Shown here: one piece after another, positions 5,954 to 33,803 of the stretch | How positions within the stretch are numbered: position 1 is the first letter of the stretch | Layout of the letters: the number at the start of each line of letters is the position of its first letter | Source of the DNA: an uncultured Eubacteriales bacterium | Lineage (GTDB): Bacteria; Bacillota; Clostridia; Oscillospirales; Acutalibacteraceae | Direction of reading: 5' to 3' | Assembly (NCBI GenBank): GCA_964371665.1 | Contig: CAYJNP010000001.1 | Span: forward strand, 37,862 to 78,729 | DNA length: 40,868 nucleotides | Notes under the pieces: model-generated | Seen by the model: the letters and a program-made list of their open reading frames with translations, nothing else | Told to the model about the DNA's origin: nothing | Databases searched by the model: none | Translations under genes and position numbers: made by a program

Positions 5954-5968
5954 TATAATAAATTGTTC
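5954..5968 (-). promoter_or_regulatory. phage promoter-like motif GAACAATTTATTATA (upstream of the helicase gene)
   Basis: One of 12 copies of GAACAAT-N-W-ATTATA. Intergenic and oriented toward the downstream gene. Confidence 0.55.
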
Positions 5969-7862: not shown

Positions 7863-7928
7863 AATATCACGTCCTCAATATTACATTTCTGTAATTCTCT
7901 TACATTAAAGAATGATTTCATTATATCC

Positions 7929-7943
7929 ATTATTATAATATAT
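7929..7943 (-). promoter_or_regulatory. AT-rich motif ATATATTATAATAAT upstream of the RNAP gene (possible second promoter class)
   Basis: The RNAP gene has no GAACAAT motif upstream. This element resembles the TTGTTTATATATTATTAT 18-mer shared by 16533..16550 and 22131..22148. Confidence 0.25.
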
Positions 7944-11626: not shown

Positions 11627-11641
11627 TATAATAGATTGTTC
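11627..11641 (-). promoter_or_regulatory. phage promoter-like motif GAACAATCTATTATA
   Basis: A copy of the 15-nt motif, about 105 nt upstream of the ATG of 8167..11520. Confidence 0.55.
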
Positions 11642-11979: not shown

Positions 11980-12719
11980 TACCATACCTCCAAAACAATA
12001 TTTTCATTTCCGGTTTCTGAAAATATTTTCATTGTAATTAATTCATTATTATTTTCATCTGGAAATTCATATAAATCTACAATAATTACAGTATTTTCTA
12101 AATAAAAATTATTTGTTGTTATAATTGGGTTATTATTTTTATCAAAAAAAGAAACATTAATTCCCGATAAACTTCCATCAGATTTTAAAAAATAATTTTT
12201 CTTTTTAAAAAAAGTTAAGTTCTTACTTATTTTTTCTGGAATTATTTCTAAACCAGATTCTTCATCTATTAAACAATCATATTGTGATTGACCTAATAAA
12301 ATACCATTATCGTTTATATTTACTATGTTTCTAATTTGATAAAAATTATCGGCATCTTTTTCTAAATATAATTTATGGTAATTTATTAAAGAACTATTAT
12401 AATTATTTAATAAATTGTTTCTATCTTCATATAGAGTATCAGTATTTCCTTCAATATCTTCAACTAATAAATCATAAACAATAGTATAATCCCAATCATC
12501 TTTATAAATAAATAAAATACCAGTATTAGTTGATTTACTTATTACACCAGTTATTAAAGTTTCTGGGAATTCTATTAATTGAGGCTGAATAACATATAAA
12601 GTAACATCGTTATATTCGTTGAATGAATCTACTGTATTAATGTCATATGAAATTGGTTGGGTTGTATTTCTGATAATTAATTCATTATTATATTTTTTAT
12701 TTATTATATATCTATACAT
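11979..12719 (-). CDS. hypothetical protein
   Basis: 246-codon ORF with a TAATG stop/start overlap with the upstream gene (translational coupling). No recognisable motifs. Confidence 0.65.
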   Translation of the reverse strand: MYRYIINKKYNNELIIRNTTQPISYDINTVDSFNEYNDVTLYVIQPQLIEFPETLITGVISKSTNTGILFIYKDDWDYTIVYDLLVEDIEGNTDTLYEDRNNLLNNYNSSLINYHKLYLEKDADNFYQIRNIVNINDNGILLGQSQYDCLIDEESGLEIIPEKISKNLTFFKKKNYFLKSDGSLSGINVSFFDKNNNPIITTNNFYLENTVIIVDLYEFPDENNNELITMKIFSETGNENIVLEVW

Positions 12720-13063
12720 TAAAATCCAACTCCAATCACTAAACCTAGATTCAAACTATTTTGTATCTTTACATTTGAAATGCTGGTTTTATCAATTTTA
12801 TTCATCTGACAAATTATCATTTTTTTATCTTTGTAATTGAAAATAAATTTATTATCTGCAATGAAAATATTTTCATCGAAATTCTCTTCTGTAATAAAAA
12901 TACCTCTAAATAAATTAGTATCAATATTAGAATTTTCTGATATTTCTTGAACGAAATATAATCCGTTTTTAACATTTTGATCCGTTCTATAATAATCGAA
13001 TTCTAACTTATTGAATATATTTACATCAATAATTTCTTCTAAATAAAAATCCTTTTCATTCAT
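12719..13063 (-). CDS. hypothetical protein
   Basis: 114-codon ORF. SD AAGGAAGTGA lies 4 nt before the ATG. The GAACAAT promoter motif is directly upstream. Confidence 0.65.
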   Translation of the reverse strand: MNEKDFYLEEIIDVNIFNKLEFDYYRTDQNVKNGLYFVQEISENSNIDTNLFRGIFITEENFDENIFIADNKFIFNYKDKKMIICQMNKIDKTSISNVKIQNSLNLGLVIGVGF

Positions 13064-13082: not shown

Positions 13083-13097
13083 TATAATATATTGTTC
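13083..13097 (-). promoter_or_regulatory. phage promoter-like motif GAACAATATATTATA
   Basis: A copy of the 15-nt motif placed just downstream of the terminator at 13117..13154 and about 20 nt from the ATG of 12719..13063. Confidence 0.55.
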
Positions 13098-13116: not shown

Positions 13117-13154
13117 CAAAAAAAGAAAGAGAAACCTATCCTTTTAGATAGGTT
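13117..13154 (-). terminator. rho-independent terminator
   Basis: The minus strand reads AACCTATC-TAAAAG-GATAGGTT followed by TCTCTTTCTTTTTTT. The 8-bp stem is 13133-13140 / 13147-13154. It overlaps the stop codon of 13136..13444. Confidence 0.75.
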
Positions 13155-13444
13155 GCAATTTCTTGTAATTCTGCTACATCATAAGATGTGAATGATAACG
13201 TATTTTTCAACGTCTCGTTTCTTACTACTAATTTAAAACTATTTCTAGTTTTATATGTAGCCATTGATAATTCGCTTACTGCGTAAATATCGAATTTATT
13301 ATCAACGTGTTTATACATCGATAATGAAGCACTTGCTTCTGTTGCGTTATCCCAACGCACTCTTCTTTGAAGATTTTTTTCTCCTTGAAGATTTAACTCT
13401 GAGCTTACAAATGCTCTTTTTGTATTTGTATTATTTGTTGACAT
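13136..13444 (-). CDS. hypothetical 102-aa protein in a self-contained cassette
   Basis: Strong SD AAGGAGGACTTA before the ATG, its own terminator, and no GAACAAT motif upstream. Begins MSTNNTNTKRAFVSSELNLQGEKNLQRRVRWDN... Confidence 0.7.
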   Translation of the reverse strand: MSTNNTNTKRAFVSSELNLQGEKNLQRRVRWDNATEASASLSMYKHVDNKFDIYAVSELSMATYKTRNSFKLVVRNETLKNTLSFTSYDVAELQEIATYLKG

Positions 13445-13523: not shown

Positions 13524-14135
13524 CTAGTCAAAATAATTTATTGTTGCTTCCTTCTCCATTATAAGAATATTTTCTTCTGGTTTTAATATTGTATATTTTC
13601 TGCTAGGCATTAAAAATTCTTTTTTAGAAATATTAAATTCTTTATCTGTTATAATTTCTCTAATAAGTTTTCTATCAGATGAAACAAATAAATTCCAATT
13701 ATTTTTTTCTAAATATTCTTTTATTAAATTTCTTGTTAATAAAATTGTTTTTATTTTTCTATTTTTAAACGATTTTATTATTTCTATTTGTTTTTCGTTA
13801 TAACAAATAACTGTAATTTCTTCTATTACATTATTATTTTCTAATGCAGAATTTTTAATAACTTTTTTAAAAAAATCTGTTATTTTGTTTTTAGAAAAAT
13901 TAGAATTATTTTTTATTTTTTCTAATATTTTTTTGAAATAAAATACATTCCCAGAATCAACTAAAAAATCTCTTTGTTTTCTTTTATTAAATTCTTTTTC
14001 ATTTTTTACATAATAATTTTCTTTTGGAAACATGTAAGAAAATTTCAACCAATTATATTTTATAAATAAATAAATATCATAATATTCTTTATTATAAACA
14101 ATATCGTCAAAATCTAAAACTATTCTTCCTTGCAT
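13524..14135 (-). CDS. hypothetical protein
   Basis: 203-codon ORF. SD GGAAGTGA immediately follows the promoter motif. The N-terminal IVLDFDDIV only loosely resembles HAD motif I. Confidence 0.65.
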   Translation of the reverse strand: MQGRIVLDFDDIVYNKEYYDIYLFIKYNWLKFSYMFPKENYYVKNEKEFNKRKQRDFLVDSGNVFYFKKILEKIKNNSNFSKNKITDFFKKVIKNSALENNNVIEEITVICYNEKQIEIIKSFKNRKIKTILLTRNLIKEYLEKNNWNLFVSSDRKLIREIITDKEFNISKKEFLMPSRKYTILKPEENILIMEKEATINYFD

Positions 14136-14147: not shown

Positions 14148-14162
14148 TATAATAAATTGTTC
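14148..14162 (-). promoter_or_regulatory. phage promoter-like motif GAACAATTTATTATA
   Basis: The motif is followed directly by GGAAGTGATATAATG, implying a leader of only about 15 nt. It sits just downstream of the terminator at 14178..14206. Confidence 0.55.
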
Positions 14163-14177: not shown

Positions 14178-14206
14178 AATAAAAAAAGAATAGGTTTCCC
14201 TATCCT
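14178..14206 (-). terminator. rho-independent terminator after the DNA polymerase gene
   Basis: The minus strand reads AGGATAGG-GAAA-CCTATTCT (8 bp including one G:U) followed by TTTTTTATT. Overlaps the polymerase stop codon. Confidence 0.65.
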
Positions 14207-16197
14207 TTAAATATATTTGACATATAATTTTTTTGATCTCTATTAATACAATGTACTGCAAGAGATTCTAACATAATATTTCCAGAAGAAATATTGTTGA
14301 TTGCTGTTGATTCAATATCAATAAAAGGAATAATATAATCAGGTATTTTTTCTATTGTTTTTGGCGTAGCTAAAACATTAAATCCCATTTTCTTAAATCC
14401 TTTATTTTCATCTTCATCCGTATAAGATCTAAAAACAACATTCATAATAATTTCATATTTATCTGGATAATTTTCTTTTAACCATAACATTTCTGGACAA
14501 TCTTCTTTTGTTGAAACTAATTTCATCATATTAATACTATCTGGTAATATTATTTTATGTTCTGGTTCTAATTCATTCCATACCATAACACCACGAACCT
14601 GTGGTAAAGATAATAATCTACTTTGATCATAATTTTCAAAACCATCACATCTTTTAGGAATTAGATATGTTGAATTTCCAGCTTTTATATCATCGGATAC
14701 TTCTTTCTTTATTTCATAGAATTTATATAAAATATCCTTCACAGAAATATTTTTATTTTTTAGAATATCATAAAATAAAATATTTGAATATTTATCTCTG
14801 ATTTTTTCTGCAATAACTGATTTTCTAATAGAAATACCTTTCATATCCAAGCGTTTATCCATTTCATCATCATCATTACAATCAATAATTTTTCCAAACT
14901 CTGCCCATAAATATGCAGCGTATGCTTTTTTAGCTTTCGTCATCATAGTTTGAGCCATTAAATATTCATTTTTCATTTCTATTATTTTTTTATATTCATC
15001 TTCTATTCCTAAATTTGTTGTAAGTGTCCAATAAATTCTAGCCAATGCTTCTGTACAAAAATCTATATAAATATTACAAGATGATAATTCATTTTTTTCT
15101 GTTTCTTTTAAATCATATTCTTTTAATAAAGTTTGAATATGATTTCCTAAATATAAGAAATTTGAATCAGTATCACAAATTAAAACTGAGTTTCTTGTTT
15201 CTTGTAATGCTCTTCTATATCTATCATCTAATATATAATTATAGAAAGTAAAATCAATTACAATGTTAGTAAAATCATCGTCTCTTGTATGACCGTTAAT
15301 TTTCTTTCCATCTTCTCCGATAGTTCCATCTATTTCATTATATCTTTTAATTTTAGAGTTCATTATTTCTCTAATTTTCTTACCTGATAAGAATAAAATT
15401 AAATTGTTTTTATAGAATAATTCTGTTAATTCTCTTTCATCGTGGGTTAATAATAGATTTCCTAATACGTCTCTTTCGATTTCGAAATCGCATTTATTAT
15501 ATAAATAATCAACGACTTCTTCTCTATTAATAGGTCTATCAACATAATCGAAAATATCTTTTTCATGTTTTTCTCTTTTTACATTCATAATAAATTGTAA
15601 AACATCATCTAATTTTTTATAACGACAATTATTTCCTAAGAAGTCCTCCATTGCTATAATTGATGTTGATATGATGTCTTGTCCTGTAAATGTTACAGAG
15701 TTTTGTATTAACGAATTAAAGAATATTGATACATCTAAACCTAATGTTCCATAAAATGCATTCGCTGCAACTTTAAAACCTAATTGTAGTACTTTATATC
15801 TATTATAATCTAGAGAACCTTTTTCCGAAGCTTGCATTTTATTTTTATTAATTCCACGCATTTTACCTAAGAATTCTAAAACTTGAATTATTAAATTTTC
15901 ATCATCGTGTTTTTCAAATAAACAAGCATACCCAGACATTATATAATCACTATTTAAAAATAGATTTATAAATTCTTCAACATTCATAACTTGATTAGTG
16001 TTTTTAACGTTGTTCATAAATCTACCTTTTGGTAAATAACGTTTTTTATATATCTTCTTTAAATAATCTAAAAGTTCTGCGTCTGATAATACATCTTTTG
16101 TATATTTTAATCTAATTTTATCTCTTAAATCTTTGAATAAAAGATACATGAAACTTAATCTTTCTTCTTTGTTTCTATTTCTAATATCTAATCGCAT
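14200..16197 (-). CDS. family-B DNA polymerase, C-terminal part (palm motifs B and C plus thumb)
   Basis: Motif B KVAANAFYGTLG (K...N..YG), motif C VLICDTDSNFLY (DTDS), and KKAYA (the KKRYA-type motif). GYACLFEKHDDENLIIQVLEFLGKMRGINKNKM aligns with T4 gp43 NGWMYDKHQEGIIPKEIAKVFFQRKDWKKKM. No exonuclease domain and no DxxSLYPS motif A are present in this ORF. Confidence 0.85.
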   Translation of the reverse strand: MRLDIRNRNKEERLSFMYLLFKDLRDKIRLKYTKDVLSDAELLDYLKKIYKKRYLPKGRFMNNVKNTNQVMNVEEFINLFLNSDYIMSGYACLFEKHDDENLIIQVLEFLGKMRGINKNKMQASEKGSLDYNRYKVLQLGFKVAANAFYGTLGLDVSIFFNSLIQNSVTFTGQDIISTSIIAMEDFLGNNCRYKKLDDVLQFIMNVKREKHEKDIFDYVDRPINREEVVDYLYNKCDFEIERDVLGNLLLTHDERELTELFYKNNLILFLSGKKIREIMNSKIKRYNEIDGTIGEDGKKINGHTRDDDFTNIVIDFTFYNYILDDRYRRALQETRNSVLICDTDSNFLYLGNHIQTLLKEYDLKETEKNELSSCNIYIDFCTEALARIYWTLTTNLGIEDEYKKIIEMKNEYLMAQTMMTKAKKAYAAYLWAEFGKIIDCNDDDEMDKRLDMKGISIRKSVIAEKIRDKYSNILFYDILKNKNISVKDILYKFYEIKKEVSDDIKAGNSTYLIPKRCDGFENYDQSRLLSLPQVRGVMVWNELEPEHKIILPDSINMMKLVSTKEDCPEMLWLKENYPDKYEIIMNVVFRSYTDEDENKGFKKMGFNVLATPKTIEKIPDYIIPFIDIESTAINNISSGNIMLESLAVHCINRDQKNYMSNIFKG

Positions 16198-16481
16198 TTT
16201 ATACTTTCTTTAATATGACATTCTGTACATACATATTTTCCGTCCAATGTTTCGGTTAATTCATTTTTATAAAAAAGTTGTTCGCATTCAATACATTTAA
16301 TTATTCCTTTTTCTTCTAATTTAAAAGCTTTAATAGGATCATTAAGTATTTCTTTAGAATAATCTGATAAAAATTTAATCATTTCTTCTGGATTATCTTC
16401 ATCTTTATATGATGACATAAAAATATATTGTATTAATTCCTCAATTTTTTTTGCTATTTCTATTCTAGTTTCTTCTCTCAT
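16188..16481 (-). CDS. small zinc-ribbon protein
   Basis: CIECEQ...(17 aa)...CTECH forms a CxxC..CxxC pair. SD AAGAAAGGAAAATAAT precedes the ATG. The 3' end overlaps the polymerase start by 10 nt. Confidence 0.65.
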   Translation of the reverse strand: MREETRIEIAKKIEELIQYIFMSSYKDEDNPEEMIKFLSDYSKEILNDPIKAFKLEEKGIIKCIECEQLFYKNELTETLDGKYVCTECHIKESIKCD

Positions 16482-16532
16482 ATTATTTTCCTTTCTTTAA
16501 ATATTTTTATCAATATACTTTATTGACTCACA

Positions 16533-16550
16533 ATAATAATATATAAACAA
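16533..16550 (-). promoter_or_regulatory. 18-nt AT-rich element TTGTTTATATATTATTAT (possible second promoter class)
   Basis: Exact 18-mer shared with 22131..22148. Lies between the TAACAAT motif and the Zn-ribbon/polymerase operon. Confidence 0.3.
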
Positions 16551-16561: not shown

Positions 16562-16576
16562 TATAATATATTGTTA
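16562..16576 (-). promoter_or_regulatory. promoter-like motif variant TAACAATATATTATA
   Basis: Matches the 15-nt motif except for the first base. Placed just downstream of the terminator at 16594..16628. Confidence 0.45.
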
Positions 16577-16593: not shown

Positions 16594-16628
16594 CAAAAAA
16601 AAATATAAGAGAAATTAATCTCTTATAT
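16594..16628 (-). terminator. rho-independent terminator
   Basis: 10-bp perfect stem 16603-16612 / 16619-16628 (atataagaga/tctcttatat) with a 6-nt loop. Followed on the minus strand by a run of about 9 T. Confidence 0.8.
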
Positions 16629-16633
16629 TTAAA

Positions 16634-18095: not shown

Positions 18096-18995
18096 TTATT
18101 TTCTTTTTTTCAATAAACTTGAATATTCTTTTTTATCATTTTGTAAAGATTCATTTAAAATATTATTTCTAACATTTTTTAAAAGATAATCTTCTAATTT
18201 TACTGTTTTTACTACGTTCCCGTTTTGTAATTTTACAGTACCGAAACTATTTGAATAAGTTTCCATTAATAATTTATCAGAATCATCATAGAAATATAAT
18301 TTACTAAAATGAACTAATTCACCTGAACCATTATCAATTAAATTTTCATAAATTAAACCTGAATTTTCTAAATTTTCTGTTTCTAATAAACCTTCATTTA
18401 AATTTAAAGATTCTGAAACAAAAGACTCATTTAAACAAGCTGATTCGTTAACACTTAAGTTTCCAATTTCTCTCATATAAGCTTTATCATGACTTGGATT
18501 CATAACCCAATCCCAACCAACAATTCTTAATCCTGGTTTTACAACAGTTCCTCCACCAAATCCTGGAGCAACATCACCTTGAGCTCTTAAACTAAATCCG
18601 ACTTGAACGCCTTGTTCTATTAATCCAGCCATACCTTTACCAACATCATTGTTTGCTGTTTCAAGATCACCAACTAATAAATCGCCTTCCCACCAAAGTT
18701 TTCTAATAATATGAGAGAATTTTAATGGATTAAGTTGACTTTGAACAGCCATATCTTTATTAGTAGGGTGTCCTGCTTCTCCACCAAAGTTCAATGTAGC
18801 CATACCTTTAGTAACAGTGAAATCTTTCATACCTTGTTCAAGGACGTTTTTAGGATAAGTTCTTCTATTTCTATTTTCTCTATTAGCCTCTTGAATTACA
18901 GCAGTAAATCTTATAGTTCCTAATGGAGTTTTTTTAAAATTTCTAATTTCAGCTACATGAGCTGACTCTAGAATTAAATATTTTCCTGTATTCAT
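18096..18995 (-). CDS. prohead core protease (T4 gp21 family)
   Basis: VIQEANRENRNRRTYPKNVLEQGMKDF aligns with T4 gp21 QAEVVNRNKRLYPKRILEKAVKDY. GGEAGHPT aligns with GELNHPP (catalytic His). KLWWEGDLLVGDLE aligns with DMWWKGNDVYGRARV. VGFSLRAQG aligns with PGVSSRGLG (catalytic Ser). I use the ATG at 18995 (MNTGKYL); the track's GTG at 19001 lies inside the leader spacer. Confidence 0.88.
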   Translation of the reverse strand: MNTGKYLILESAHVAEIRNFKKTPLGTIRFTAVIQEANRENRNRRTYPKNVLEQGMKDFTVTKGMATLNFGGEAGHPTNKDMAVQSQLNPLKFSHIIRKLWWEGDLLVGDLETANNDVGKGMAGLIEQGVQVGFSLRAQGDVAPGFGGGTVVKPGLRIVGWDWVMNPSHDKAYMREIGNLSVNESACLNESFVSESLNLNEGLLETENLENSGLIYENLIDNGSGELVHFSKLYFYDDSDKLLMETYSNSFGTVKLQNGNVVKTVKLEDYLLKNVRNNILNESLQNDKKEYSSLLKKRK

Positions 18996-19055
18996 GTACA
19001 CTATGCTTTACATTTCAAACGGCTAAGTCCTACCTATGACGTAAAGCGTCTCCTT
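18993..19055 (-). promoter_or_regulatory. structured leader with split ribosome-binding site (protease gene)
   Basis: The minus strand reads AAGGAGAC (19055..19048), GCTTTAC (19047..19041), a 29-nt loop, GTAAAGC (19011..19005), 9 nt (ATAGTGTAC), then ATG (18995). Confidence 0.55.
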
Positions 19056-19121
19056 TTCTAAATGTTTTTGACTTATTATTTATTACAAAATATCAAATTT
19101 TATACTTATTATTTTATTTTA

Positions 19122-19136
19122 TATAATTTATTGTTC
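19122..19136 (-). promoter_or_regulatory. phage promoter-like motif GAACAATAAATTATA (protease operon)
   Basis: A copy of the 15-nt motif. Divergent partner of 19238..19252. Confidence 0.55.
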
Positions 19137-19237: not shown

Positions 19238-19252
19238 GAACAATAGATTATA
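19238..19252 (+). promoter_or_regulatory. phage promoter-like motif GAACAATAGATTATA
   Basis: A copy of the 15-nt motif, 75 nt upstream of the ATG at 19327. Confidence 0.55.
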
Positions 19253-19326
19253 TAAATAGTATTGCAACACTAATTATGCTTTACATTTTATATGGTTTTA
19301 ATAAAGTGGAAAGGACGGATGTAATT

Positions 19327-19947
19327 ATGAAACACTTTTTTACAAACGGACTATTGAACATTAAAGAAGATAAAAATTCAAATTCCTCTGAAAAAACTTT
19401 TGAAAAGGCTATTAAAACAAATCTGTTAGAAAATGAAAATATTGTAGCAGAAGAACAAGTTGAAGAACCGCAAGAAATTGTGGAAGAACCTGTAGTGGAA
19501 GAAGAGCCTGTTGATGATGGATATGTCGAAGAAGAAATTCAAGATGATCTATCTTATATGGAACAACTACCCCCTAATTCAAAAGAAAATTCAACGGAAC
19601 ACGAAAAAATGAAATCTTTATTTATTTGTTCTGAAAATCTTTATGATTATTCTAAATTAGTAGAGCAGAATATTAAAAATATTGATAAAAGTACGATTGA
19701 TAGAGTGACTGTTGTAAAATTAGCTCAATTAGAAGACAAAATGAATCTTTATATTAATAAAATAAAAGATTTTGTTGCAGAAGTGTTTATTAGAGAAACA
19801 TATGAAAAAAATTTATATTTATTTTATACTCTAAGAAACGAATTTATTACTATAATAAAAATAATAAGAAAATTATTGAAATTAGAAACAATGGAACATG
19901 ATGATATTTCAAAGGATTCGCAAGAAGGATTAATTGAAATTAAATAA
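19327..19947 (+). CDS. acidic hypothetical protein upstream of the capsid gene (possible scaffold/internal head protein)
   Basis: I prefer the ATG at 19327 (MKHFFTNG) because the SD block GAAAGGACGG lies 8 nt upstream. The track start at 19276 has no SD. Contains an acidic tract EEQVEEPQEIVEEPVVEEEPVDDGYVEEEIQDD. Confidence 0.65.
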   Translation: MKHFFTNGLLNIKEDKNSNSSEKTFEKAIKTNLLENENIVAEEQVEEPQEIVEEPVVEEEPVDDGYVEEEIQDDLSYMEQLPPNSKENSTEHEKMKSLFICSENLYDYSKLVEQNIKNIDKSTIDRVTVVKLAQLEDKMNLYINKIKDFVAEVFIRETYEKNLYLFYTLRNEFITIIKIIRKLLKLETMEHDDISKDSQEGLIEIK

Positions 19948-19964: not shown

Positions 19965-19979
19965 AACAAACTATTAAAA
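19965..19979 (+). promoter_or_regulatory. weak variant AAACAAACTATTAAA (retains AACA-N6-TA only)
   Basis: Only the AACA core and its spacing to TA are kept. It lies 7 nt before the capsid-leader SD. The capsid gene may instead be read through from 19238. Confidence 0.25.
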
Positions 19980-19985
19980 AATAAC

Positions 19986-20076
19986 AAGGAGAGACTTTAC
20001 ATATAGTTGGTTAGTTTACCATGGGAATAACAATTAGTTATCTATAAATATAAAAAGTAAAGTATATAAAATTATG
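19986..20076 (+). promoter_or_regulatory. structured leader with split ribosome-binding site (capsid gene)
   Basis: AAGGAGAG (19986-19993), ACTTTAC (19994-20000), 56 nt with further imperfect pairing, GTAAAGT (20057-20063), 10 nt (ATATAAAATT), then ATG (20074). Confidence 0.6.
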
Positions 20077-21912: not shown

Positions 21913-21950
21913 AAAAAAAAGAAATAGTTAACGCTATTTCTTTTTCTTTT
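21913..21950. terminator. bidirectional rho-independent terminator after the capsid gene
   Basis: Stem agaaatag (21920-21927) / ctatttct (21934-21941) with loop ttaacg. An A-run lies upstream and TTTTCTTTT downstream. Confidence 0.75.
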
Positions 21951-22041
21951 TACTTATAGCGAAAATTCCTCTTCCGCTACAGATTATTGTACTTTGGCTT
22001 TTGTATATTTTATACTTTTTTAATTTAAATAAATTTATCAT
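21934..22041 (-). CDS. 35-aa lysine-rich peptide (candidate small gene, not in the ORF track)
   Basis: ATG at 22041..22039 is preceded by the strongest SD in the window (GGGAGGATAAAAAT). Translation: MINLFKLKKYKIYKSQSTIICSGRGIFAISKKKKK. The stop lies in the terminator stem. Confidence 0.4.
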   Translation of the reverse strand: MINLFKLKKYKIYKSQSTIICSGRGIFAISKKKKK

Positions 22042-22130
22042 ATTTTTATCCTCCCGATAGTATCAATGGGTTTTACATTGTAATACATAAAATATGAAAT
22101 AAGAGTTTATCATATTATTTCTTATTCTTT

Positions 22131-22148
22131 ATAATAATATATAAACAA
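22131..22148 (-). promoter_or_regulatory. 18-nt AT-rich element TTGTTTATATATTATTAT (second copy)
   Basis: Exact match to 16533..16550. Lies between the terminator at 22149..22183 and the small ORF 21934..22041. Confidence 0.3.
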
Positions 22149-22186: not shown

Positions 22187-22891
22187 TTATGCACCTTTTA
22201 TTTTTCTTGAATAAGTTAGTATTGAATTTTGAGCAAATTTTTCTATTAATGCTTCTCTTTCTGCTTTTGCATTTTCAACTTGATCTAAAAATAAACTTAT
22301 ATTACCATAAGGTGATTCTATATTTTCAAATCTTTTTCTAATAGGAAATAATGTTACTAAAAAATCTAATAAACATAATTGTAGAAAATGCTCTCTCAAT
22401 CCAGTATCAATTGTACTCAAATGTTCTGGATGAACAGCCATTATCATTGCTAAAGCATAACTTGATGACCATAATTTTGGAAAAATTTCGACTTTATTTG
22501 GTGGAATAAATACTGGTGTTATTCTTGTTTGTGTATATGATTGAAAATCAGCATATAATTGATTATTGACTGGATCTGTTGAATTCATCAATGCTAAATT
22601 ATTATAACTATTTAGATCACTTAAATAAACTTCAGAAACACCGACGATTCTTAATCCATCAACATTAGGTATTGTATATACATTTTTTCCACGAATTATT
22701 TCATCTTTTTCTCTTAAACCTACTCTAAATTTAAATGGGAAATATTTACTAAATGTTACTAGAGATTCTTGGAATACTGTTTTCATCATTTCTTCATCAG
22801 ATATCTCAGCTTCAATATCATAAACAACATCACCAATATTTCTTTTTATATAACGGATTACTTCCGTAGGATTTAAACTAAACATAGCCAT
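22187..22891 (-). CDS. hypothetical protein (probably virion-associated, by context)
   Basis: I use the ATG at 22891 (MAMFSLNPTE). The track start at 22900 is a TTG. The GAACAAT motif lies 25 nt upstream. Confidence 0.65.
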   Translation of the reverse strand: MAMFSLNPTEVIRYIKRNIGDVVYDIEAEISDEEMMKTVFQESLVTFSKYFPFKFRVGLREKDEIIRGKNVYTIPNVDGLRIVGVSEVYLSDLNSYNNLALMNSTDPVNNQLYADFQSYTQTRITPVFIPPNKVEIFPKLWSSSYALAMIMAVHPEHLSTIDTGLREHFLQLCLLDFLVTLFPIRKRFENIESPYGNISLFLDQVENAKAEREALIEKFAQNSILTYSRKIKGA

Positions 22892-22915
22892 ATAAATCAA
22901 CTCTTTTCTTTATAT

Positions 22916-22930
22916 TATAATATATTGTTC
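22916..22930 (-). promoter_or_regulatory. phage promoter-like motif GAACAATATATTATA
   Basis: Back-to-back with 22940..22954. The two GAACAA cores form an inverted repeat separated by 9 bp. Confidence 0.55.
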
Positions 22931-22939: not shown

Positions 22940-22954
22940 GAACAATTTATTATA
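22940..22954 (+). promoter_or_regulatory. phage promoter-like motif GAACAATTTATTATA
   Basis: A copy of the 15-nt motif, 30 nt upstream of the ATG at 22985. Confidence 0.55.
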
Positions 22955-22984
22955 TAATAACAAATAACGAAAGGACGGATGCAT

Positions 22985-23731
22985 ATGCAAAACGTAGATA
23001 TAGAATTATTAATAAAATTATTTAAATCTCAAAAGATTTCAGAATATACTTTTGGTTCAGAATTAGAAAATATTATAGGTGGACTAACTAGAACTAATGT
23101 TGAATTTATTGATGGAACTTTTGGTTCTTCTGGAAATGATTATCTTGTTTCTTCATTACCTATATTAATTCCAAATGGATATAAATTTAAATTTATCGTA
23201 GATAGAACTTTATTTAAAGGTTCACTTTTTTCAGATACAGATATTTCTAGAATTATTGAAGATGTGTCAAAAGGACAACTTCAAATCTTAAATGTATTAA
23301 ATAAAAAATTCAATAAAAAGAAAAATATTGAAATTGGTATGAGAGAATTAATAAAAATTTATTTAGAGCTTTATTTAGCTAATATTAAATTAATAAATCC
23401 ATCAATTTTATCTAAAATTCAAAAAGAAAATATTCTAAACATTAATGATTTAGAAAAATTTATATTCGAATACGATGATAATAACTTATCTTTAGAAGAA
23501 GTATTAGAATTTATTTCTGTTAAACATTTATTACCTGAGCCTTATATAATGGAAGCTAAAAAGCAATTTGGAAGTCAAGTTGAAAGTATTTATGGAAAAG
23601 GTGCTAATCACGATGAACCGGATTACTTTGATGTAAAAAATATGAAAAAAGAACCTTTCGATAACGATAAAGATGATCCTGTTATAACTAGAGAAATTCC
23701 TCATGACTATAAACCTCCTTATAGTTATTAA
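22985..23731 (+). CDS. hypothetical protein
   Basis: The track start at 22979 is part of the conserved block GAAAGGACGGATG, which also precedes 19327. With that SD, the ATG at 22985 (MQNVDIELL) has 6-nt spacing while 22979 has none. Confidence 0.65.
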   Translation: MQNVDIELLIKLFKSQKISEYTFGSELENIIGGLTRTNVEFIDGTFGSSGNDYLVSSLPILIPNGYKFKFIVDRTLFKGSLFSDTDISRIIEDVSKGQLQILNVLNKKFNKKKNIEIGMRELIKIYLELYLANIKLINPSILSKIQKENILNINDLEKFIFEYDDNNLSLEEVLEFISVKHLLPEPYIMEAKKQFGSQVESIYGKGANHDEPDYFDVKNMKKEPFDNDKDDPVITREIPHDYKPPYSY

Positions 23732-23736: not shown

Positions 23737-23767
23737 GAAAATAGAACTTATTGTTCTATTTCTTTTA
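23737..23767. terminator. bidirectional terminator between convergent genes
   Basis: 9-bp stem aaatagaac (23739-23747) / gttctattt (23753-23761) with loop ttatt. A-run upstream and T-rich tract downstream. Overlaps the last codons of the ATPase gene. Confidence 0.65.
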
Positions 23768-27538: not shown

Positions 27539-28120
27539 TCACCCCATCAAACAATTTGATAATTCTTTAATTAATAATAAATTTTTTACTGATTCATTAA
27601 CAACTTCTAAAGATAAATCTTCAATTTTTATATGATTTAATTGATCATATAAATTATCACTATAAATTTCTTCTTTAGTTTTTATTTTAGATAAATTTTT
27701 ATGTAAAATATCTGCATTTTTTATTTCATATTTATCGCAATATTCTTCCATATTATTCCCTAAAAAATTTTTCATATTAGTAAATTCATCTTTAGTTTCT
27801 TCAAATTCTAATAATAAATTTCCAATATAAGCAACTTTCATTGCTTCTTTTAAAGATAGTTTTAAACCATTTCTAGAAGATAACATTATATTTCTTAAAT
27901 TTTCTGCTGTTTTTAAAGATAAAATATCTTTAACTTCAGAGTTATTTCTAAATGCAAAATAATTTGCAATTGCATCTTCAGTTGATTCATTTATTAAATT
28001 AGAACCTTCTACTAATACTTTATTCAAAGTATTTTCAACTTCTTCTTTAATTTCTTTTTTATATTTATTCATTGTTGTGACTTGTTTCACAAAATTTTCT
28101 TTTATAACATTTTTAATCAT
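27539..28120 (-). CDS. hypothetical protein
   Basis: ORF-track frame. The ATG at 28120 (MIKNVIKENF) overlaps the upstream stop (ATGATTAA). The track start at 28132 is a GTG. Confidence 0.6.
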   Translation of the reverse strand: MIKNVIKENFVKQVTTMNKYKKEIKEEVENTLNKVLVEGSNLINESTEDAIANYFAFRNNSEVKDILSLKTAENLRNIMLSSRNGLKLSLKEAMKVAYIGNLLLEFEETKDEFTNMKNFLGNNMEEYCDKYEIKNADILHKNLSKIKTKEEIYSDNLYDQLNHIKIEDLSLEVVNESVKNLLLIKELSNCLMG

Positions 28121-28928
28121 TATATCGACCACTTTCTATTTTTTTATTATATAATGTATTGTTCTCTATAATTTCTTCAATTTTAGCTTTAAGTAATCTA
28201 TTTTTTTCTAATTCTAAATCATGATCAGTCATTAATGAAATAAGATGTAAAAATACTGCATTTACCCTTGATATATTTTTATTTACAATAATATCAAAAT
28301 ATAACATTCCAATAAATTTTTTAAATCCTTTTATTTTATGACATAAATTAGTAGTTAATTGTTGTCTTATTTTTCTTAAATCTTTATGAACTTGTTCTAC
28401 TGTGAAAATTAATTTGCCAGCTACAGCTTTTGTCATAAATATTTCAAAATTTACAAAGTCTAACGATAATACAGTTTCTATTAAACTATTTTCACCATGT
28501 TGCATTCTTAAATATTCAATAGTTTCTTCAATAGGGACATATCCTTTAATATTTAAATCACTTGTTCCTGTTATATCAAATAATTGATCTGGATTTTGTA
28601 ATTGTAGTAATTTAAAATCATTTTCATCGTCATTTAATAAACATTTAACTAATCTTTCAACATTTGCAATTGTCCATCCAGGTAAAAAACTTCTGAATCT
28701 TATATATAAAATTGCTTCTAAATTTTCTTTATCATCTATTGTTGTTTTAACTTGCTCTATAATTTCTTTTAGTACTGAAAATTCAGCATTAGAAAATTTA
28801 TAAAATAATTCTTTTTGTTCTAGTTTTTCTTCTTGAAAAATTCTTGTTTCATTTTCATTTAAATTAACTTTACCTAAAATATCAGTTAAAGCATTTTCTT
28901 TCTCATAGTTTTTCTTATTAATATTCAT
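28113..28928 (-). CDS. hypothetical protein
   Basis: 271-codon ORF whose start overlaps the upstream gene's end by 11 nt. No recognisable motifs. Confidence 0.65.
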   Translation of the reverse strand: MNINKKNYEKENALTDILGKVNLNENETRIFQEEKLEQKELFYKFSNAEFSVLKEIIEQVKTTIDDKENLEAILYIRFRSFLPGWTIANVERLVKCLLNDDENDFKLLQLQNPDQLFDITGTSDLNIKGYVPIEETIEYLRMQHGENSLIETVLSLDFVNFEIFMTKAVAGKLIFTVEQVHKDLRKIRQQLTTNLCHKIKGFKKFIGMLYFDIIVNKNISRVNAVFLHLISLMTDHDLELEKNRLLKAKIEEIIENNTLYNKKIESGRYND

Positions 28929-29754
28929 TCTTCTCTTCCATTTCTATATTTTTCAATAATTTTAATACAATTTCATTTCTTATATTTGTGAAATATTCCA
29001 TATCATCTGTTATAGCGAAATATTTATCTGATGCTTCATTATCATCAATAATTGTTAATTCTTTTCCATAATTAATCAACATTTCGTCCATTTTATTATT
29101 ATAAGTTTCATATAAATCGATAAAAGTTATTTCTTTGAATAAACCTAAACCTGAATTATAAGTAGCTCTAATATCATAGATTATTTCTGTAATATAATTT
29201 AAAATTAAATTATCTTCGAAGTTTTTAAATTTTTTCTTATCTTGTAGAACAAATAAATCTTGTTCTTCTTCGTTATTGAAAACATCTCTGTATCTATCCG
29301 CAATTATTTGTTTATTATTTATAATATATCTGTAGATTACATCTCTAATATTTTCATAGTTTCTTATGAAGAAAAATTCATATAAAACTTCATATTTTTC
29401 TAATAATTCTATAATATCAACTGTTTCATCCGTGTCCTCTCCAATTTCAACTGAATAGATTTCTCTTAAACCAAATGAAACAAGATCAATTAATTCATTT
29501 ATTCTATCTAAAAAATGTTCTTTTAAATCACTTGTAATTATATCCTCTTTATTTTTTTCTACTCTTTCTTTAAATAATGTTACAAAGTTAACCATATCGA
29601 TTAGAGAAGTTTTACCTTCTATTTGATCTTTTATATTTTTAATAACAATATCAATAGACAAATCCTCGTCGAGATTTTGAATTCTCTCTACAATGGAATA
29701 TGTTTCTTTTTCTTCTTCTTTTTCTTCTATTAATATATATCCGTTTTTTGCCAT
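28918..29754 (-). CDS. hypothetical protein (first gene of a five-gene operon)
   Basis: 278-codon ORF. SD GAAAGGAAACGACA precedes the ATG. The GAACAAT motif lies 29 nt upstream. Confidence 0.65.
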   Translation of the reverse strand: MAKNGYILIEEKEEEKETYSIVERIQNLDEDLSIDIVIKNIKDQIEGKTSLIDMVNFVTLFKERVEKNKEDIITSDLKEHFLDRINELIDLVSFGLREIYSVEIGEDTDETVDIIELLEKYEVLYEFFFIRNYENIRDVIYRYIINNKQIIADRYRDVFNNEEEQDLFVLQDKKKFKNFEDNLILNYITEIIYDIRATYNSGLGLFKEITFIDLYETYNNKMDEMLINYGKELTIIDDNEASDKYFAITDDMEYFTNIRNEIVLKLLKNIEMEEKNEY

Positions 29755-29782: not shown

Positions 29783-29797
29783 TATAATAAATTGTTC
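29783..29797 (-). promoter_or_regulatory. phage promoter-like motif GAACAATTTATTATA
   Basis: A copy of the 15-nt motif just downstream of the terminase stop/hairpin. Confidence 0.55.
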
Positions 29798-29811: not shown

Positions 29812-29846
29812 TAATAGAAAAAATAAAAGGCTTATAAAAACCTTTT
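29812..29846 (-). terminator. weak terminator-like hairpin after the terminase gene
   Basis: The minus strand reads AAAAGG-(10 nt)-CCTTTT followed by ATTTTTTCTATT. The stem is only 6 bp with a large loop. Confidence 0.35.
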
Positions 29847-31854
29847 ATGAATTCCACTTTTTAAATGTATTTTGTAATCTATCTTCCGTTGGTGTAAAAT
29901 CTTCTTCTTTTCCATAATAAGCCCCACTATCAAAATCTCTTGATGCACTCGTTACTATACCATCGTTATTTTTTGTTCCACCGTTTAAAAATCTAGATTC
30001 TATATGATTTATAGAAACTGTTGCTCTTAAAGTTTTAGCTCTAACTTCTTCTATATTTTCAATATTAAATACTCTATGATTTAAAATTCCATATTGTTTA
30101 AAGAAATCACCATCAGAAACAGCATATCTAAATACTAGATAAGACATAACGGAGTCATCATGACATCCAGGAGATGCTTGAGGTTTCCCTTTTATTTCTA
30201 CTAATGTTCCTAATTCATTTATTATTTTTTTAGAAACGAAAACATCCGGTTCGTCTCTAACAATTGCAGTTAGCATACTGAACATCAAAGGTCTACTATA
30301 TCTATCGGTGTGAACACCATAAGTATATTCAAATCTTTTCTTTTCTATTTTTTTACTATACTCTTTTGTTACAGATGCTTCTTTTACTGATTTTTTCTTA
30401 TATATTCTTGGTTCTAATTGAGGATTTTTAATTAATCTATCTAAAATTGCTTTACCGTAACTATTTCTTTCGACCACTAATAATGAATTTATGAAATAAC
30501 TAGTCATCAGTTTATCTATTAATGAACCAAATAAGTTTATATCTATTTTTGAACTTGCTATATCGCCAACTATTCTAAAATCTGAAGGATGTATTATATT
30601 AATTACTGAGCTATCTTGATTTGTACCTCCGGCAACGTCACAAGATAGAATGTATCTTTGTTTTAAATCGGGTAATTCATAGAAATCAATAAAATAAGGA
30701 ATTCTATTTATTACTTTACCTTTAACTTCTATATCAACATCTACTCTTAGAACGAAAACAGAATCTTTAGCGTAACTATTTACAATTTCCATATCTTCAG
30801 TAGAAAATAGACCGTTATCTATTGAATTCGTCCAAACTAAATCTAATTCCCTTTTTTTCTTTAATTCGCTTGACATTTGCGAACACATTTCATCGTACCA
30901 ATCTTGTGTTCTACCTATTTCTTGCCAACTATATTGAATATGAACAAATGGTTTCTTTCCATTTTTTTTCATAAAACGTTTTATTTCTGATTCTGTCATA
31001 TCATAAAATTCATATCTAAATGGTGTACATTCTGAAATAAATTTATGAGCCCACTTACCAGTTTCTGTATCTATATTATTTGGTGTTGTTGTAAAATGCA
31101 TTCCATAAGGCACGCCGTTTCGTTTAGCATTTTCTGCTGCTGTTCTCCATGCTGGAACACAGGCATCATAAATAATATCTACTTTATTCATGAAGGCTAA
31201 CTCGTCTTTATAAATTATAGCTGAAGTCAAACCCCTACCTAACTTATCGGCTTGAGCTGCTGAAGTTGCAGATGATTTAATTAATAATTGATTTTTTAAT
31301 CTACTTATAAATTTTTCATTTACATTATCTTTATCATGTTTATGTTTAATAATTGTTTGTAAAAATCTAGGTAATAATTCCTTTATTGCTTTAAAACGTC
31401 TACCATTTTCAATAGCATCTGGATATTGTTTATTAAGATAAATTGCTTGACATCCTTTTGTTGCAAATAACATTATCCATGTATGTTCAATAACACAACC
31501 TATTGTCTTACCTTGCTGACGTGGTAATAAAGAAATAAAATTTAAATTTTTTGAAACTGCGAATGATTGAGCTAAATTTCCTAAATTTAATTTATAAGGA
31601 ATACCGTCCGACCCAGTATCTGGAATTAATACTACTTCTCTTATATAATACCATTTATTCCTACAAATTTCATTATATATTCTTATTTTTTGTTCTGCTG
31701 TTAAATTATCACTTCTAGGATCAACTCCGACTAAAGATTTATCGTATAATTTTAGCATAAATTTATTATTTTTTACACCTTTTTTCTTTAATTGGTTTGA
31801 TACGAATAAAAATGAAAGATTTTTTGTATTTATATCATAAATAAAATCAGCCAT
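29845..31854 (-). CDS. terL: terminase large subunit
   Basis: Walker A-like LPRQQGKT (compare T4 gp17 SRQLGKT), Walker B IIYKDELAF, coupling motif FTTTPN, nuclease acidic residues in SCDVAGG and CHDDSVMS. SD AGAAGTGATATA. Confidence 0.9.
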   Translation of the reverse strand: MADFIYDINTKNLSFLFVSNQLKKKGVKNNKFMLKLYDKSLVGVDPRSDNLTAEQKIRIYNEICRNKWYYIREVVLIPDTGSDGIPYKLNLGNLAQSFAVSKNLNFISLLPRQQGKTIGCVIEHTWIMLFATKGCQAIYLNKQYPDAIENGRRFKAIKELLPRFLQTIIKHKHDKDNVNEKFISRLKNQLLIKSSATSAAQADKLGRGLTSAIIYKDELAFMNKVDIIYDACVPAWRTAAENAKRNGVPYGMHFTTTPNNIDTETGKWAHKFISECTPFRYEFYDMTESEIKRFMKKNGKKPFVHIQYSWQEIGRTQDWYDEMCSQMSSELKKKRELDLVWTNSIDNGLFSTEDMEIVNSYAKDSVFVLRVDVDIEVKGKVINRIPYFIDFYELPDLKQRYILSCDVAGGTNQDSSVINIIHPSDFRIVGDIASSKIDINLFGSLIDKLMTSYFINSLLVVERNSYGKAILDRLIKNPQLEPRIYKKKSVKEASVTKEYSKKIEKKRFEYTYGVHTDRYSRPLMFSMLTAIVRDEPDVFVSKKIINELGTLVEIKGKPQASPGCHDDSVMSYLVFRYAVSDGDFFKQYGILNHRVFNIENIEEVRAKTLRATVSINHIESRFLNGGTKNNDGIVTSASRDFDSGAYYGKEEDFTPTEDRLQNTFKKWNS

Positions 31855-31872: not shown

Positions 31873-31887
31873 TATAATATATTGTTC
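31873..31887 (-). promoter_or_regulatory. phage promoter-like motif GAACAATATATTATA (terminase)
   Basis: A copy of the 15-nt motif, 19 nt upstream of the terminase ATG. Confidence 0.55.
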
Positions 31888-31929
31888 GCTTTTTTAGTTG
31901 TTTTTATACATTTTTATACTAATTTCATC

Positions 31930-31944
31930 GAACAATAAATTATA
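31930..31944 (+). promoter_or_regulatory. phage promoter-like motif GAACAATAAATTATA (sheath/tube operon)
   Basis: A copy of the 15-nt motif. Divergent partner of 31873..31887. Confidence 0.55.
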
Positions 31945-31998
31945 TACTATAATATAAATTAAAATAAATCAGATAAACTAAAAGCGAAAAAATATAAA

Positions 31999-32102
31999 AA
32001 GGAGAGTCTTTACGATAGATGGATTGCTTTTATCCATATCTGTGACATAAAATGTTTCTATAATATAATGAAAATTATATTAAGTAAAGAATATAAAATA
32101 TG
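31999..32102 (+). promoter_or_regulatory. structured leader with split ribosome-binding site (sheath gene)
   Basis: AAGGAGAG (31999-32006), TCTTTAC (32007-32013), 70 nt containing the inner hairpin GATGGAT/ATCCAT, GTAAAGA (32084-32090), 9 nt (ATATAAAAT), then ATG (32100). Confidence 0.6.
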
Positions 32103-33803
32103 GCAAATACTATAATAAATTATCCTAGAGTTTCTGTAACTTATAATGCTAGTTTAACTCAATTACCTACAGCTGCTGAAAATAATGCTACAATTTTGTT
32201 TGCACCTTTTATATCTAATAAAGGACCTGCAAATAAACCAACATATATATCTTCTTATAGTGACTTTGTTTCTTTGTACGGAACTTTGGATTATAATAAA
32301 AATGGACAACAAGTTTTGAATATAGGAAATTGGTTAAATTCTTTTGGTCAAATTTTAGCATATAGAATTGTTGATTTCGATTCAATAAAACTTACAGGTG
32401 GGATTAATGATATTGATTTAACTAATGCTTTATCTGATACAGATTTAAAAAGTTTTTTAAATTTTTATTCATTAGTTCTTGAAAATGGTTCGACGGTATA
32501 TTTTGTTAATGGTGTTGAATTAGATAATGATTTAACTTCATTTGTTGATACTTATACATTAAGTGTCGAATCAGATGGCTCATTAAAAATAGGAGAAGAA
32601 AATTTAACTAACAACAGTCGTAATGTTTCTATAAATGATCCTTCTTTATATGCATTATATGGAACTGATATTTCTGAAACAGCACTTGCTATTAAATCGA
32701 TTAAATTTATATATCGTTCTAAAAATATTGGTTCAGATTATCAAAATTTTAAATTAAGTTTTGAAGGTTCAAGTATCGAAAAAACATTTAATATTGTTTT
32801 AAGTAACAATAATAAAGTTATTCAAACAATAAGAAATAGAACTTTAAGTAATTATAAAAGTGCATTAATAAAAGATGAAGATCCTTTTTCATATATAGAT
32901 ATGATTTATATAAATGGAGGATTTGATATAACTTCAACTATAGGATATTCAAATTATATTCAATTAATTCAAAATAAAATAGATGGTGATAATATTTCTT
33001 CTGCTTTTGATGCAATAGCTGATCCATTGGTTTATCCTTGTGATGTTGTTTTAGATGCTGGTTTCTCTAGTGATGTAAAACAAGCTATTGTTAATAAAAT
33101 TGAAAATGTTCGTTATGATGTATTTTCGTTTTTAGATTATTTTGAAAATAAAAATAATAAAATGATCCAATTAACGAGTGCACCTACGGTAATTAAAGGT
33201 GATAATTTTGCAATTTATCAACAATATGGGACAACTGAAGACATTTATTCTACAGTTTCTCAAGGTGAAATTAAAGTTACACCTACATATTTCTTAGCAA
33301 ATCTTATTCCTTTTAATGATAGACAATATGGATACGGTAAAACTCCTGTTGGTTTAAGATACGGTGTATTAAATGATGTTATTTCTATAAATCAAATTCC
33401 TAATAGTGATGAAAAAGAAGAATGGTTCCAAGCCGGAATTAATTATATTGAAAAAGATTCTCGTTCAACACAATTCTTTACTCAAAGAACTATGTTTGAA
33501 GTTCAAGATGGTTTTGTGTCAGCATTACAATTTATTAACAACTCTCGTATTGCAAAAAGAATAGGTAGAGATGTTACAAATATTGCTAGATGGGAAATCG
33601 GTGAAGTAAACGATAATACAACAGTGACAAATCTAAGAGATAAAATAAATAGATATTTGGATACATGGGTTCAATTAAGAGTATTATCTTCTAAAGAAGT
33701 AATAGTTGAAATAGATCCATTTGATAATGTAATTTTAAATGTTACATTAAATATATTATTTAACGGTACAATTGAATACATTCCAATTGTAATCAATTTA
33801 TAA
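32100..33803 (+). CDS. tail sheath protein
   Basis: The N-terminus has the usual sheath layout (YPRVSVTYNAS...ATILFAPFISNKGPANKPTYISSYSDFVSLYG). The C-terminal block is GINYIEKDSRSTQFFTQRTM. It is followed by a tube-like gene. Confidence 0.75.
   Translation: MANTIINYPRVSVTYNASLTQLPTAAENNATILFAPFISNKGPANKPTYISSYSDFVSLYGTLDYNKNGQQVLNIGNWLNSFGQILAYRIVDFDSIKLTGGINDIDLTNALSDTDLKSFLNFYSLVLENGSTVYFVNGVELDNDLTSFVDTYTLSVESDGSLKIGEENLTNNSRNVSINDPSLYALYGTDISETALAIKSIKFIYRSKNIGSDYQNFKLSFEGSSIEKTFNIVLSNNNKVIQTIRNRTLSNYKSALIKDEDPFSYIDMIYINGGFDITSTIGYSNYIQLIQNKIDGDNISSAFDAIADPLVYPCDVVLDAGFSSDVKQAIVNKIENVRYDVFSFLDYFENKNNKMIQLTSAPTVIKGDNFAIYQQYGTTEDIYSTVSQGEIKVTPTYFLANLIPFNDRQYGYGKTPVGLRYGVLNDVISINQIPNSDEKEEWFQAGINYIEKDSRSTQFFTQRTMFEVQDGFVSALQFINNSRIAKRIGRDVTNIARWEIGEVNDNTTVTNLRDKINRYLDTWVQLRVLSSKEVIVEIDPFDNVILNVTLNILFNGTIEYIPIVINL

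Follow-up and report, generated by a model that had tools for sequence, protein, structure and literature searches.

Introduction

Which RNA polymerase (RNAP) reads the 15-nt motif GAACAATNWATTATA, which recurs before genes in a 40,868-nt stretch of contig CAYJNP010000001.1 (the window, by which we mean the whole stretch analyzed)? An earlier description made from the letters alone, here called the original prediction, gave the motif as GAACAAT-N-W-ATTATA and proposed that its copies are promoters for a phage-encoded RNAP. We have followed up that proposal computationally, and conclude that the motif is probably a promoter for the non-virion RNAP (nvRNAP) encoded by a jumbo phage like AR9 and PBS1. 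This reading is supported by a separate early promoter class in the same DNA, by the mapped late promoters of AR9 orthologs, by five metagenomic relatives, and by the placement of Shine–Dalgarno (SD) sequences. Promoters of this kind have been described before; what is new is the phage clade, together with a consensus of unusual strictness.

In AR9, late promoters with the consensus AACA-(6N)-TA/G, whose last base is the transcription start site (TSS), are attributed to the nvRNAP (PMC5312081, PMC5449584). This enzyme consists of gp105, gp089, gp270, and gp154 together with the sigma-like gp226, and in coordinates relative to the TSS its consensus is 5'-A(-11)ACA(-8)-N6-T-A/G(+1) (PMC5312081, PMC5449584, PMC9209446). 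It reads the template strand, 3'-U(-11)UGU(-8)-5', and requires both gp226 and uracil at -11/-10 (PMC5449584, PMC9209446); its footprint far exceeds its consensus (PMC9209446). Early promoters, AAATATATATTAT-(6N)-G(+1), are attributed to the virion RNAP (vRNAP), and some AR9 genes are expressed continuously and have both promoter types (PMC5312081). The early core TATATTAT is also found in Staphylococcus phage MarsHill (bioRxiv 10.1101/2020.12.14.422802).

The phage and its relatives

On sequence grounds, the window is part of a new, uncultured, AT-rich (24% GC) jumbo myovirus of the AR9/PBS1 group. Its protein set includes a T4-type major capsid protein (MCP), portal, terminase, tail sheath, and prohead protease, along with a divergent family B DNA polymerase and a superfamily 2 (SF2) helicase as replication proteins. 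The capsid protein shows similarity to the AR9 group only (phages of Bacillus, Staphylococcus, and Listeria, and Yersinia phage phiR1-37), at 24–32% identity. The beta-prime fragment noticed in the original prediction is indeed a homolog of AR9 g154, the C-terminal half of nvRNAP beta' (beta'C), and the order DNA polymerase / beta'C / helicase is that of AR9 g152 / g154 / g156. Of the nvRNAP core subunits, the window carries beta'C, and the other three are absent from it.

When 7 kb of the window was compared to the phage collection by megablast, no nucleotide match was obtained; the exact beta'C protein has no record on public contigs, and viral contigs searched with the beta'C protein yielded no relatives. 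Five distant metagenomic relatives (L002, L127, L003, L128, and L129) were found through the beta'C protein, and are used below for comparison.

A strict motif, oriented toward genes

An exact scan of the window for GAACAATNWATTATA gave 10 matches, compared to 0.02 expected from dinucleotide-preserving shuffles, and allowing one mismatch added three more for a total of 13 (Table 1). On a gene map of 34 long open reading frames (ORFs), in which coding sequence takes up 93.7% of the window and intergenic sequence 6.3%, 12 of the 13 copies are intergenic (binomial P ~5e-14); the other is within the final codons of ORF 28113..28928 and stands 17 nt upstream of the GTG at which the following gene starts. 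Every copy points toward the start of the gene that follows it; outward-pointing pairs occupy all three divergent gaps, and convergent gaps have none. After setting aside words composed only of A and T (e.g. TATAAAA), GAACAAT is the most intergenic-enriched 7-mer, with 11 of its 23 occurrences between genes.

The 12 copies listed in the original prediction thus all exist, ten of them exact and two with one mismatch, and the intergenic and directional bias that it described is found over the whole window. Its consensus stands for the ten exact copies; 16562-16576(-) is the TAACAAT variant that it had pointed out, and 19238-19252(+), which has G at the W position, does not strictly fit. Its statement that every copy is intergenic holds for the 12 that it listed but not for the 13th, 28150-28164(-), which it had missed.

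All 13 copies fit AACA-N6-TA, with AACA at -11 to -8, a 6-nt spacer, T at -1, and A/G at +1. This minimal pattern alone is not enriched in the window (71 found, 60 expected); the signal resides in the long motif. The flanks of the 13 copies are unconserved apart from a preference for A at -20, present in 12 of the 13 and in 19 of 29 copies when relatives are added; this identifies a short motif, and we rejected a dispersed repeat element for the same reason.

An octamer, TTTAYAAT, stands exactly 5 nt upstream of GAACAAT in five copies (5954, 13083, 14148, 16562, and 29783), at -25 to -18 from the predicted TSS, and four of these five copies directly follow a terminator. Together with the A at -20 it could mark an upstream contact, or could merely be the AT-rich tail of a terminator. 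The upstream sequence TTTATAAT, which precedes the motif by ~5 nt, might have been a sigma-A -10 box or have formed an inverted repeat with ATTATAA; we rejected it as a general feature, as it belongs to five window copies, mostly beside terminators.

Predicted start site, leaders, and terminators

In several copies the SD begins at or just after the end of the motif, as at 14148 in the window (ATTATAggaagtgatataATG) and at 5941 in the relative L128 (ATTATGgaggtagagtATG). The TSS must then lie inside the motif, and a start at its 13th base, A13, keeps the ribosome-binding site. With that start, predicted leaders are 15–31 nt long and contain the SD at 9 of the 13 sites, and are 83–158 nt long at the other four. 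Hairpins followed by T-runs, which are terminators of the intrinsic type, precede four copies (13083, 14148, 16562, and 29783).

These placements bear on whether the motif is a promoter at all. An oriented motif just before ribosome-binding sites would also be expected of an RNA leader element, such as a processing site or translational operator, and a DNA operator for a phage regulator is another way to explain it. We consider such roles highly improbable. Little read-through RNA would carry the four copies that directly follow intrinsic terminators; the motif is not palindromic; the divergent copies only 9 nt apart (22916/22940) suit divergent promoters, like P114/P115 of AR9; an Rfam scan of the window matched no family; and the sequence and register are exactly those of mapped AR9 TSS motifs.

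The same placements bear on the host enzyme. Host RNAP redirected by a phage sigma factor or activator, in the manner of T4 gp55 late promoters (TATAAATA) or the gp28 and gp33/34 promoters of SPO1, could be suspected from the AT-rich 3' half, ATTATA(T/A)A, which loosely resembles an extended -10 element, and from the TTATAAT that some copies have ~5 nt upstream. That TTATAAT is not conserved in the relatives, however, and the invariant GAACA has no counterpart in the T4 or SPO1 promoter types. A host sigma-A/sigma-70 promoter has TTGACA at -35 and TATAAT at -10, 16–18 nt apart. Sigma-70-like -35/-10 patterns are no more frequent in the window than in shuffled sequence (128 matches where 145 were expected, and 158 where 159 were), and none falls at a consistent position relative to the motif; a TSS 6–7 nt past the TATA part would fall in or beyond the SD at several sites. 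Given also that the phage has an AR9-type RNAP, and that the AR9 enzyme is known to read AACA-N6-TA, transcription by a redirected host RNAP seems to us extremely improbable. What the original prediction said of context, namely terminator hairpins before these four copies, an SD directly after the motif, and no host-type -35/-10 arrangement, is borne out.

Fit to the late promoters of AR9

Using the 94 late promoters that fit the consensus in Table S3, we rebuilt the AR9 late matrix, and placed the motif in register with it such that G1 is -12 and A13, the second A of ATTATA, is +1. Outside AACA and TA, AR9 favors A at both -7 (59%) and -3 (75%), and T at -2 (54%); these same bases are fixed in the window motif, as are the AR9 majority bases T at -1 and A at +1. 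In the window motif, 13 of the 15 positions are invariant or nearly so, and information over -12 to +3 is ~19 bits compared to ~11 bits for AR9, the window value being somewhat inflated since its sites were chosen by pattern. As judged from its bases, the motif is a narrow, consensus-most subset of AR9 late-promoter space. Its A-11 and A-10, the positions at which AR9 needs template deoxyuridine, are invariant. The late consensus that the original prediction had given as AACA(N6)TW corresponds to the published, nvRNAP-recognized AACA-(6N)-TA/G, and its proposal of promoters for the phage RNAP fares well in this direct comparison, with the same register and the AR9 majority bases fixed.

Gene content agrees with this assignment. 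Among AR9 late genes mapped by differential RNA sequencing (dRNA-seq), those whose window orthologs bear the motif are the protease (g114), terminase (g121), and tail sheath (g126) genes and the helicase unit (P155). The gene at the position of g115, mapped as late in AR9, also bears the motif, a correspondence that is positional only and comes with no sequence similarity, and the g112-like virion protein gene is preceded by it as well. The beta'C gene has no late-type motif. No full motif stands before the MCP gene, whose AR9 counterpart, g117, has a mapped late promoter, aaacaaaaaattA. The median predicted 5' untranslated region (5'UTR) is 26 nt in the window and 32 nt in AR9. The predicted TSSs at 22918(-) and 22952(+) are 34 nt apart, which is the spacing of the mapped divergent late pair P114/P115 in AR9 (TSS 89691 and 89725).

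A separate early promoter class

The early-type pattern ATATATTAT-N6-G occurs five times in the window, compared to 0.84 expected: three times upstream of genes (Table 1), once overlapping a late-type copy, and once in coding sequence. It also precedes beta'C in L002, L003, L128, L129, and AR9, while the L127 contig holds just 58 nt upstream of that gene; the copies in L002 are at 9922-9937 and 17152-17167. Because this separate motif stands before the beta'C and DNA polymerase genes, the late-type motif is very unlikely to be the phage's early promoter. The 35-aa ORF that the third early-type promoter is predicted to drive is unannotated; it is flanked by a terminator-like hairpin on one side and by the capsid gene's end on the other.

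Early and late consensus sequences can be written in one register, AAATATATATTAT and AACAATNWATTAT, with two fixed differences (CA in late, AT in early). In AR9, a single A-to-C change in the early-like sequence before g057 (AACTATATATTAT) makes a late promoter, which starts at the A of ATTAT and is inactive as an early one (PMC5312081); this supports both our register and C-9 as the discriminator. This suggests that C at -9 is a switch between the two phage polymerases.

The shared register also invites the reading that the motif is a variant early promoter, used by the injected vRNAP with a TSS ~7 nt downstream of ATTAT, where AR9 early promoters have theirs. Besides the alignment with AAATATATATTAT, this reading can draw on the four late-type copies that contain the core ATATATTAT, on the 31873 copy, which has G at N6+1, and on the general habit of the two enzymes, since long conserved AT-rich motifs are typical of vRNAP promoters and the late promoters of AR9 are short. 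Yet the position equivalent to early +1 shows no preference for G in the 13 late-type copies (6 A, 1 C, 2 G, and 4 T); orthologs of AR9 early genes in the same window have their own early motif, complete with the downstream G; the genes downstream of the late-type motif are mostly structural, with AR9 orthologs that are late; and AR9 g057 is a late promoter rather than an early one. Moreover, a TSS 7 nt downstream would cut off the SD at 14148 and at L128 5941. We therefore rate the vRNAP as a very unlikely main reader of the motif, and retain the nvRNAP as the probable one.

Conservation in metagenomic relatives

In L002 and L127, with 45–46% identity in beta', the same motif occurs upstream of genes, including between beta'C and the next gene. 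In L003, L128, and L129 (36–38% beta' identity; GC 29–36%), the form upstream of genes is GAACAAYWAWTTATA. The motif is kept across the five relatives while the flanking sequence is not conserved. A scan of viral contigs for GAACAATNWATTATAT was discarded as uninformative: at least 118 loci matched, none with more than one match, and we regard these as chance matches. In MarsHill-like Staphylococcus phages, which are cultured relatives, MEME recovered the early motif and not the late motif, which is too short and weak for de novo discovery.

Proposed mechanism and points against it

If the nvRNAP reads the motif, AACA would serve as a -10-like element, recognized on the template strand as AR9 recognizes 3'-UUGU-5' by the sigma-like gp226, and initiation would occur at A13. 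The extra fixed positions (G-12, A-7, T-6, and ATTATA across the start) may represent added contacts or initiation preferences. The polymerase genes would be expressed from the second class, ATATATTAT-N6-G, read by injected vRNAP, and the window phage would thus run an AR9-type two-polymerase program of early and late transcription. We infer the TSS position, the reading enzyme, template-strand recognition, and any uracil dependence.

Several points weigh against this assignment. ATTAT, in the 3' half of the motif, is common to the early consensus, so that the vRNAP may conceivably read the motif to some extent. The full consensus, including G at -12, is met with in none of the 94 AR9 late promoters, and just six match AACAATNNATTA; recognition rules may differ in detail from those of AR9. 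A homolog of gp226 was not found by phmmer or tblastn in the window or in the five relatives, although the window is a partial genome and this is no real negative. A sequencing-run search with two stretches of the window listed no run, and the TSSs given here are predictions. Finally, the motif also stands before the helicase gene and, as a variant and together with an early motif, before the DNA polymerase operon. It is thus not strictly "late", and "nvRNAP-dependent" is the safer label, which we prefer; "late-type" is used here for the sequence class.

Database searches for gp226 returned homologs close to AR9 and, from short contigs of unrelated origin, a few distant ones; none could be tied to the window clade. 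Two distant homologs (27–29% identity), P0062 (L130 5486-6979) and P0063, are encoded on AT-rich metagenomic contigs that have no established link to the window clade. At the position of AR9 V206, which makes recognition specific for uracil, they have Ser or Thr. The gp226-like gene of L130 has an early-type motif before it and a GroEL-like gene nearby, as in AR9.

A further idea, which we regard as unlikely, is that this clade no longer relies on template-strand uracil to distinguish phage from host DNA, either because its DNA contains thymine or because the -10 pocket of its sigma-like subunit is altered, comparable to the engineered AR9 gp226 V206G. Specificity would then come from the longer consensus, and the two-base switch would part promoters between paralogous polymerases.

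Predicted promoters and neighboring genes

Table 1. Predicted promoters and the beta'C gene of the window, in window coordinates. Match refers to GAACAATNWATTATA; TSSs are predicted.
Feature	Position	Strand	Match	TSS	Downstream gene and context
Late-type, GAACAATTTATTATA	5954..5968	-	exact	5956	26 nt upstream of SF2 helicase gene 4497..5930 (AR9 g156 ortholog); AR9 counterpart is mapped late promoter P155 at syntenic position
Late-type, GAACAATCTATTATA	11627..11641	-	exact	11629	5'UTR 109 nt to 1117-aa ORF 8167..11520
Late-type	13083..13097	-	exact	13085	5'UTR 22 nt to ORF 12719..13063; preceded by terminator hairpin 13133-13154
Late-type	14148..14162	-	exact	14150	5'UTR 15 nt to ORF 13524..14135; SD GGAAGTGAT abuts motif; preceded by terminator 14185-14208
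Late-type variant, TAACAATATATTATA (TAACAAT)	16562..16576	-	one mismatch	16564	Upstream of early-type motif, ORF 16188..16481, and DNA polymerase gene 14200..16197; preceded by terminator hairpin 16601-16630
Late-type	19122..19136	-	exact	19124	Long leader to prohead protease gene 18096..19001 (AR9 g114 ortholog; AR9 P114 mapped late)
Late-type, GAACAATAGATTATA, G at W position	19238..19252	+	one mismatch	19250	5'UTR 26 nt to ORF 19276..19947; divergent from protease promoter, as AR9 P114/P115
Late-type	22916..22930	-	exact	22918	5'UTR 18 nt to ORF 22187..22900 (AR9 g112 virion protein ortholog)
Late-type	22940..22954	+	exact	22952	5'UTR 27 nt to ORF 22979..23731; back-to-back with 22916 copy
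Late-type, GAACAATACATTATA	28150..28164	-	one mismatch	28152	TSS 20 nt upstream of GTG start of 27539..28132; within 3' end of ORF 28113..28928
Late-type	29783..29797	-	exact	29785	5'UTR 31 nt to ORF 28918..29754; preceded by terminator hairpin 29823-29848
Late-type	31873..31887	-	exact	31875	5'UTR 21 nt to terminase large subunit gene 29845..31854 (AR9 g121 ortholog; AR9 P121 mapped late)
Late-type	31930..31944	+	exact	31942	158-nt leader to tail sheath gene 32100..33803 (AR9 g126 ortholog; AR9 P126 mapped late)
Candidate weak late-type, CAACAATAAATTATT	13532..13546	-	two mismatches		Upstream of ORF 13136..13444; fits AACA-N6-TA; within chance expectation
Minimal-consensus match, AACAAACTATTA	19965-19976	+			Upstream of MCP gene
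Minimal-consensus match, AACAATTAGTTA	20029-20040	+			Upstream of MCP gene
Early-type (vRNAP), ATATATTAT-AATAAT-G	7928..7943	-			Upstream of beta'C gene; AR9 g154 has annotated early promoter
Early-type, ATATATTAT-TATTGT-G	16529..16544	-			Precedes ORF 16188..16481 and DNA polymerase gene (AR9 g152 ortholog; AR9 g152 has annotated early promoter)
Early-type, ATATATTAT-TATAAA-G	22127..22142	-			Predicted to drive 35-aa ORF 21934..22041(-); in gap between MCP gene and ORF 22187..22900
nvRNAP beta' C-terminal half gene	5991..7862	-			Homolog of AR9 g154 (31% identity, E 3e-50)

Scans with Pfam and PHROGs left most of the genes directly downstream of the motif without a family. Directly upstream of beta'C, the window and two relatives each have a gene of 1069–1213 aa (window 8167-11520(-), L003 6656-9865, L129 3417-7058); its 1117-aa product in the window matched nothing in Pfam or PHROGs, and tblastn gave no homolog of it in AR9. 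Between the DNA polymerase gene, whose start it overlaps, and the early- and late-type promoters is the 97-aa ORF 16188-16481(-), which has weak zinc-ribbon matches.

The window also carries auxiliary genes. One, for NAD salvage, encodes a nicotinate phosphoribosyltransferase (NAPRTase, E 2e-70; 265-1572(-)). Another encodes a full-length, 840-aa P-type (E1-E2) cation-transporting ATPase (23748-26270(-)), with the Pfam domain E1-E2_ATPase (E 8e-40) and a HAD hydrolase domain; this unusual phage auxiliary gene is kept in L002 (1410-3923(-)), there behind a late-type motif.

A shared element in long leaders

In the long 5' leaders that precede the protease, major capsid, and tail sheath genes there is a common sequence, AAGGAGAnnCTTTAC, found three times compared to 0.12 expected (18993-19058(-), 19985-20076(+), and 31998-32102(+)), and the start codons of these genes are preceded by GTAAAG in place of an SD. 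Extended by a flanking base, the two complementary hexamers can pair over a distance as a 7-bp stem, and the outer pair shows covariation: GCTTTAC/GTAAAGC, ACTTTAC/GTAAAGT, and TCTTTAC/GTAAAGA. The SD lies 1 nt before the stem, and the ATG follows 9–10 nt after the stem. The element looks like a split ribosome-binding site joined by RNA folding, as is known for T4 genes 38 and 25. Minimum-free-energy folds contain the stem in the protease and sheath leaders, but not in the capsid leader, and the element is absent from the relative L002. The arrangement also points to ATG 18995, and not GTG 19001, as the likely start of the protease gene.

Significance and comparison with known systems

Since the motif is long and near-invariant, transcription units can be read from sequence by two motifs, early ATATATTAT-N6-G and late GAACAATNWATTATA, which provide an annotation key for a deep branch of the AR9-like jumbo phages. 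The clade also offers natural variation for asking which promoter positions past AACA and TA the nvRNAP contacts, and makes the idea of a two-base early/late switch testable. Current understanding is not overturned.

The nvRNAP of phiKZ is an enzyme of the same kind, with split beta/beta' and a fifth subunit, and likewise uses a short, TSS-overlapping consensus with no -35 element. Its late promoters have TATG, with G as the TSS, and phiKZ has middle promoters in addition (PMC5312081). The late promoters of phiKZ lack the AACA element, however, and the window capsid protein matches the AR9 group only, not phiKZ-like phages. The Listeria phage LPJP1 has, in our own scan, AACA-N6-TATA upstream of genes near its capsid gene, and shares T and A at +2/+3 with the window motif; it differs in having AACAT (T after AACA), no fixed G at -12, and a looser spacer. 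We know of no published description of these LPJP1 sites.

With AR9-type early promoters, the window motif has in common the ATTAT core and the AT-rich scaffold, but C at -9 and G at -12 are invariant in it, the conserved G 7 nt downstream is missing, and the genes that follow it are mostly structural. AR9 and the other cultured relatives share no DNA similarity with the window, and window proteins overall are 24–33% identical to theirs. Compared to AR9 late promoters, the window motif fixes G at -12, A-T at -7/-6, and T-A at +2/+3, which are weakly preferred or unconstrained in AR9. The likeness to AR9 late promoters extends from the bases themselves (AACA, the 6-nt spacer, T and A, and the same majority bases at -7, -3, and -2) to 5'UTRs of similar length, placement before orthologous late genes, divergent back-to-back pairs, a homologous beta'C gene in the same gene order, and a separate early class before the polymerase gene.

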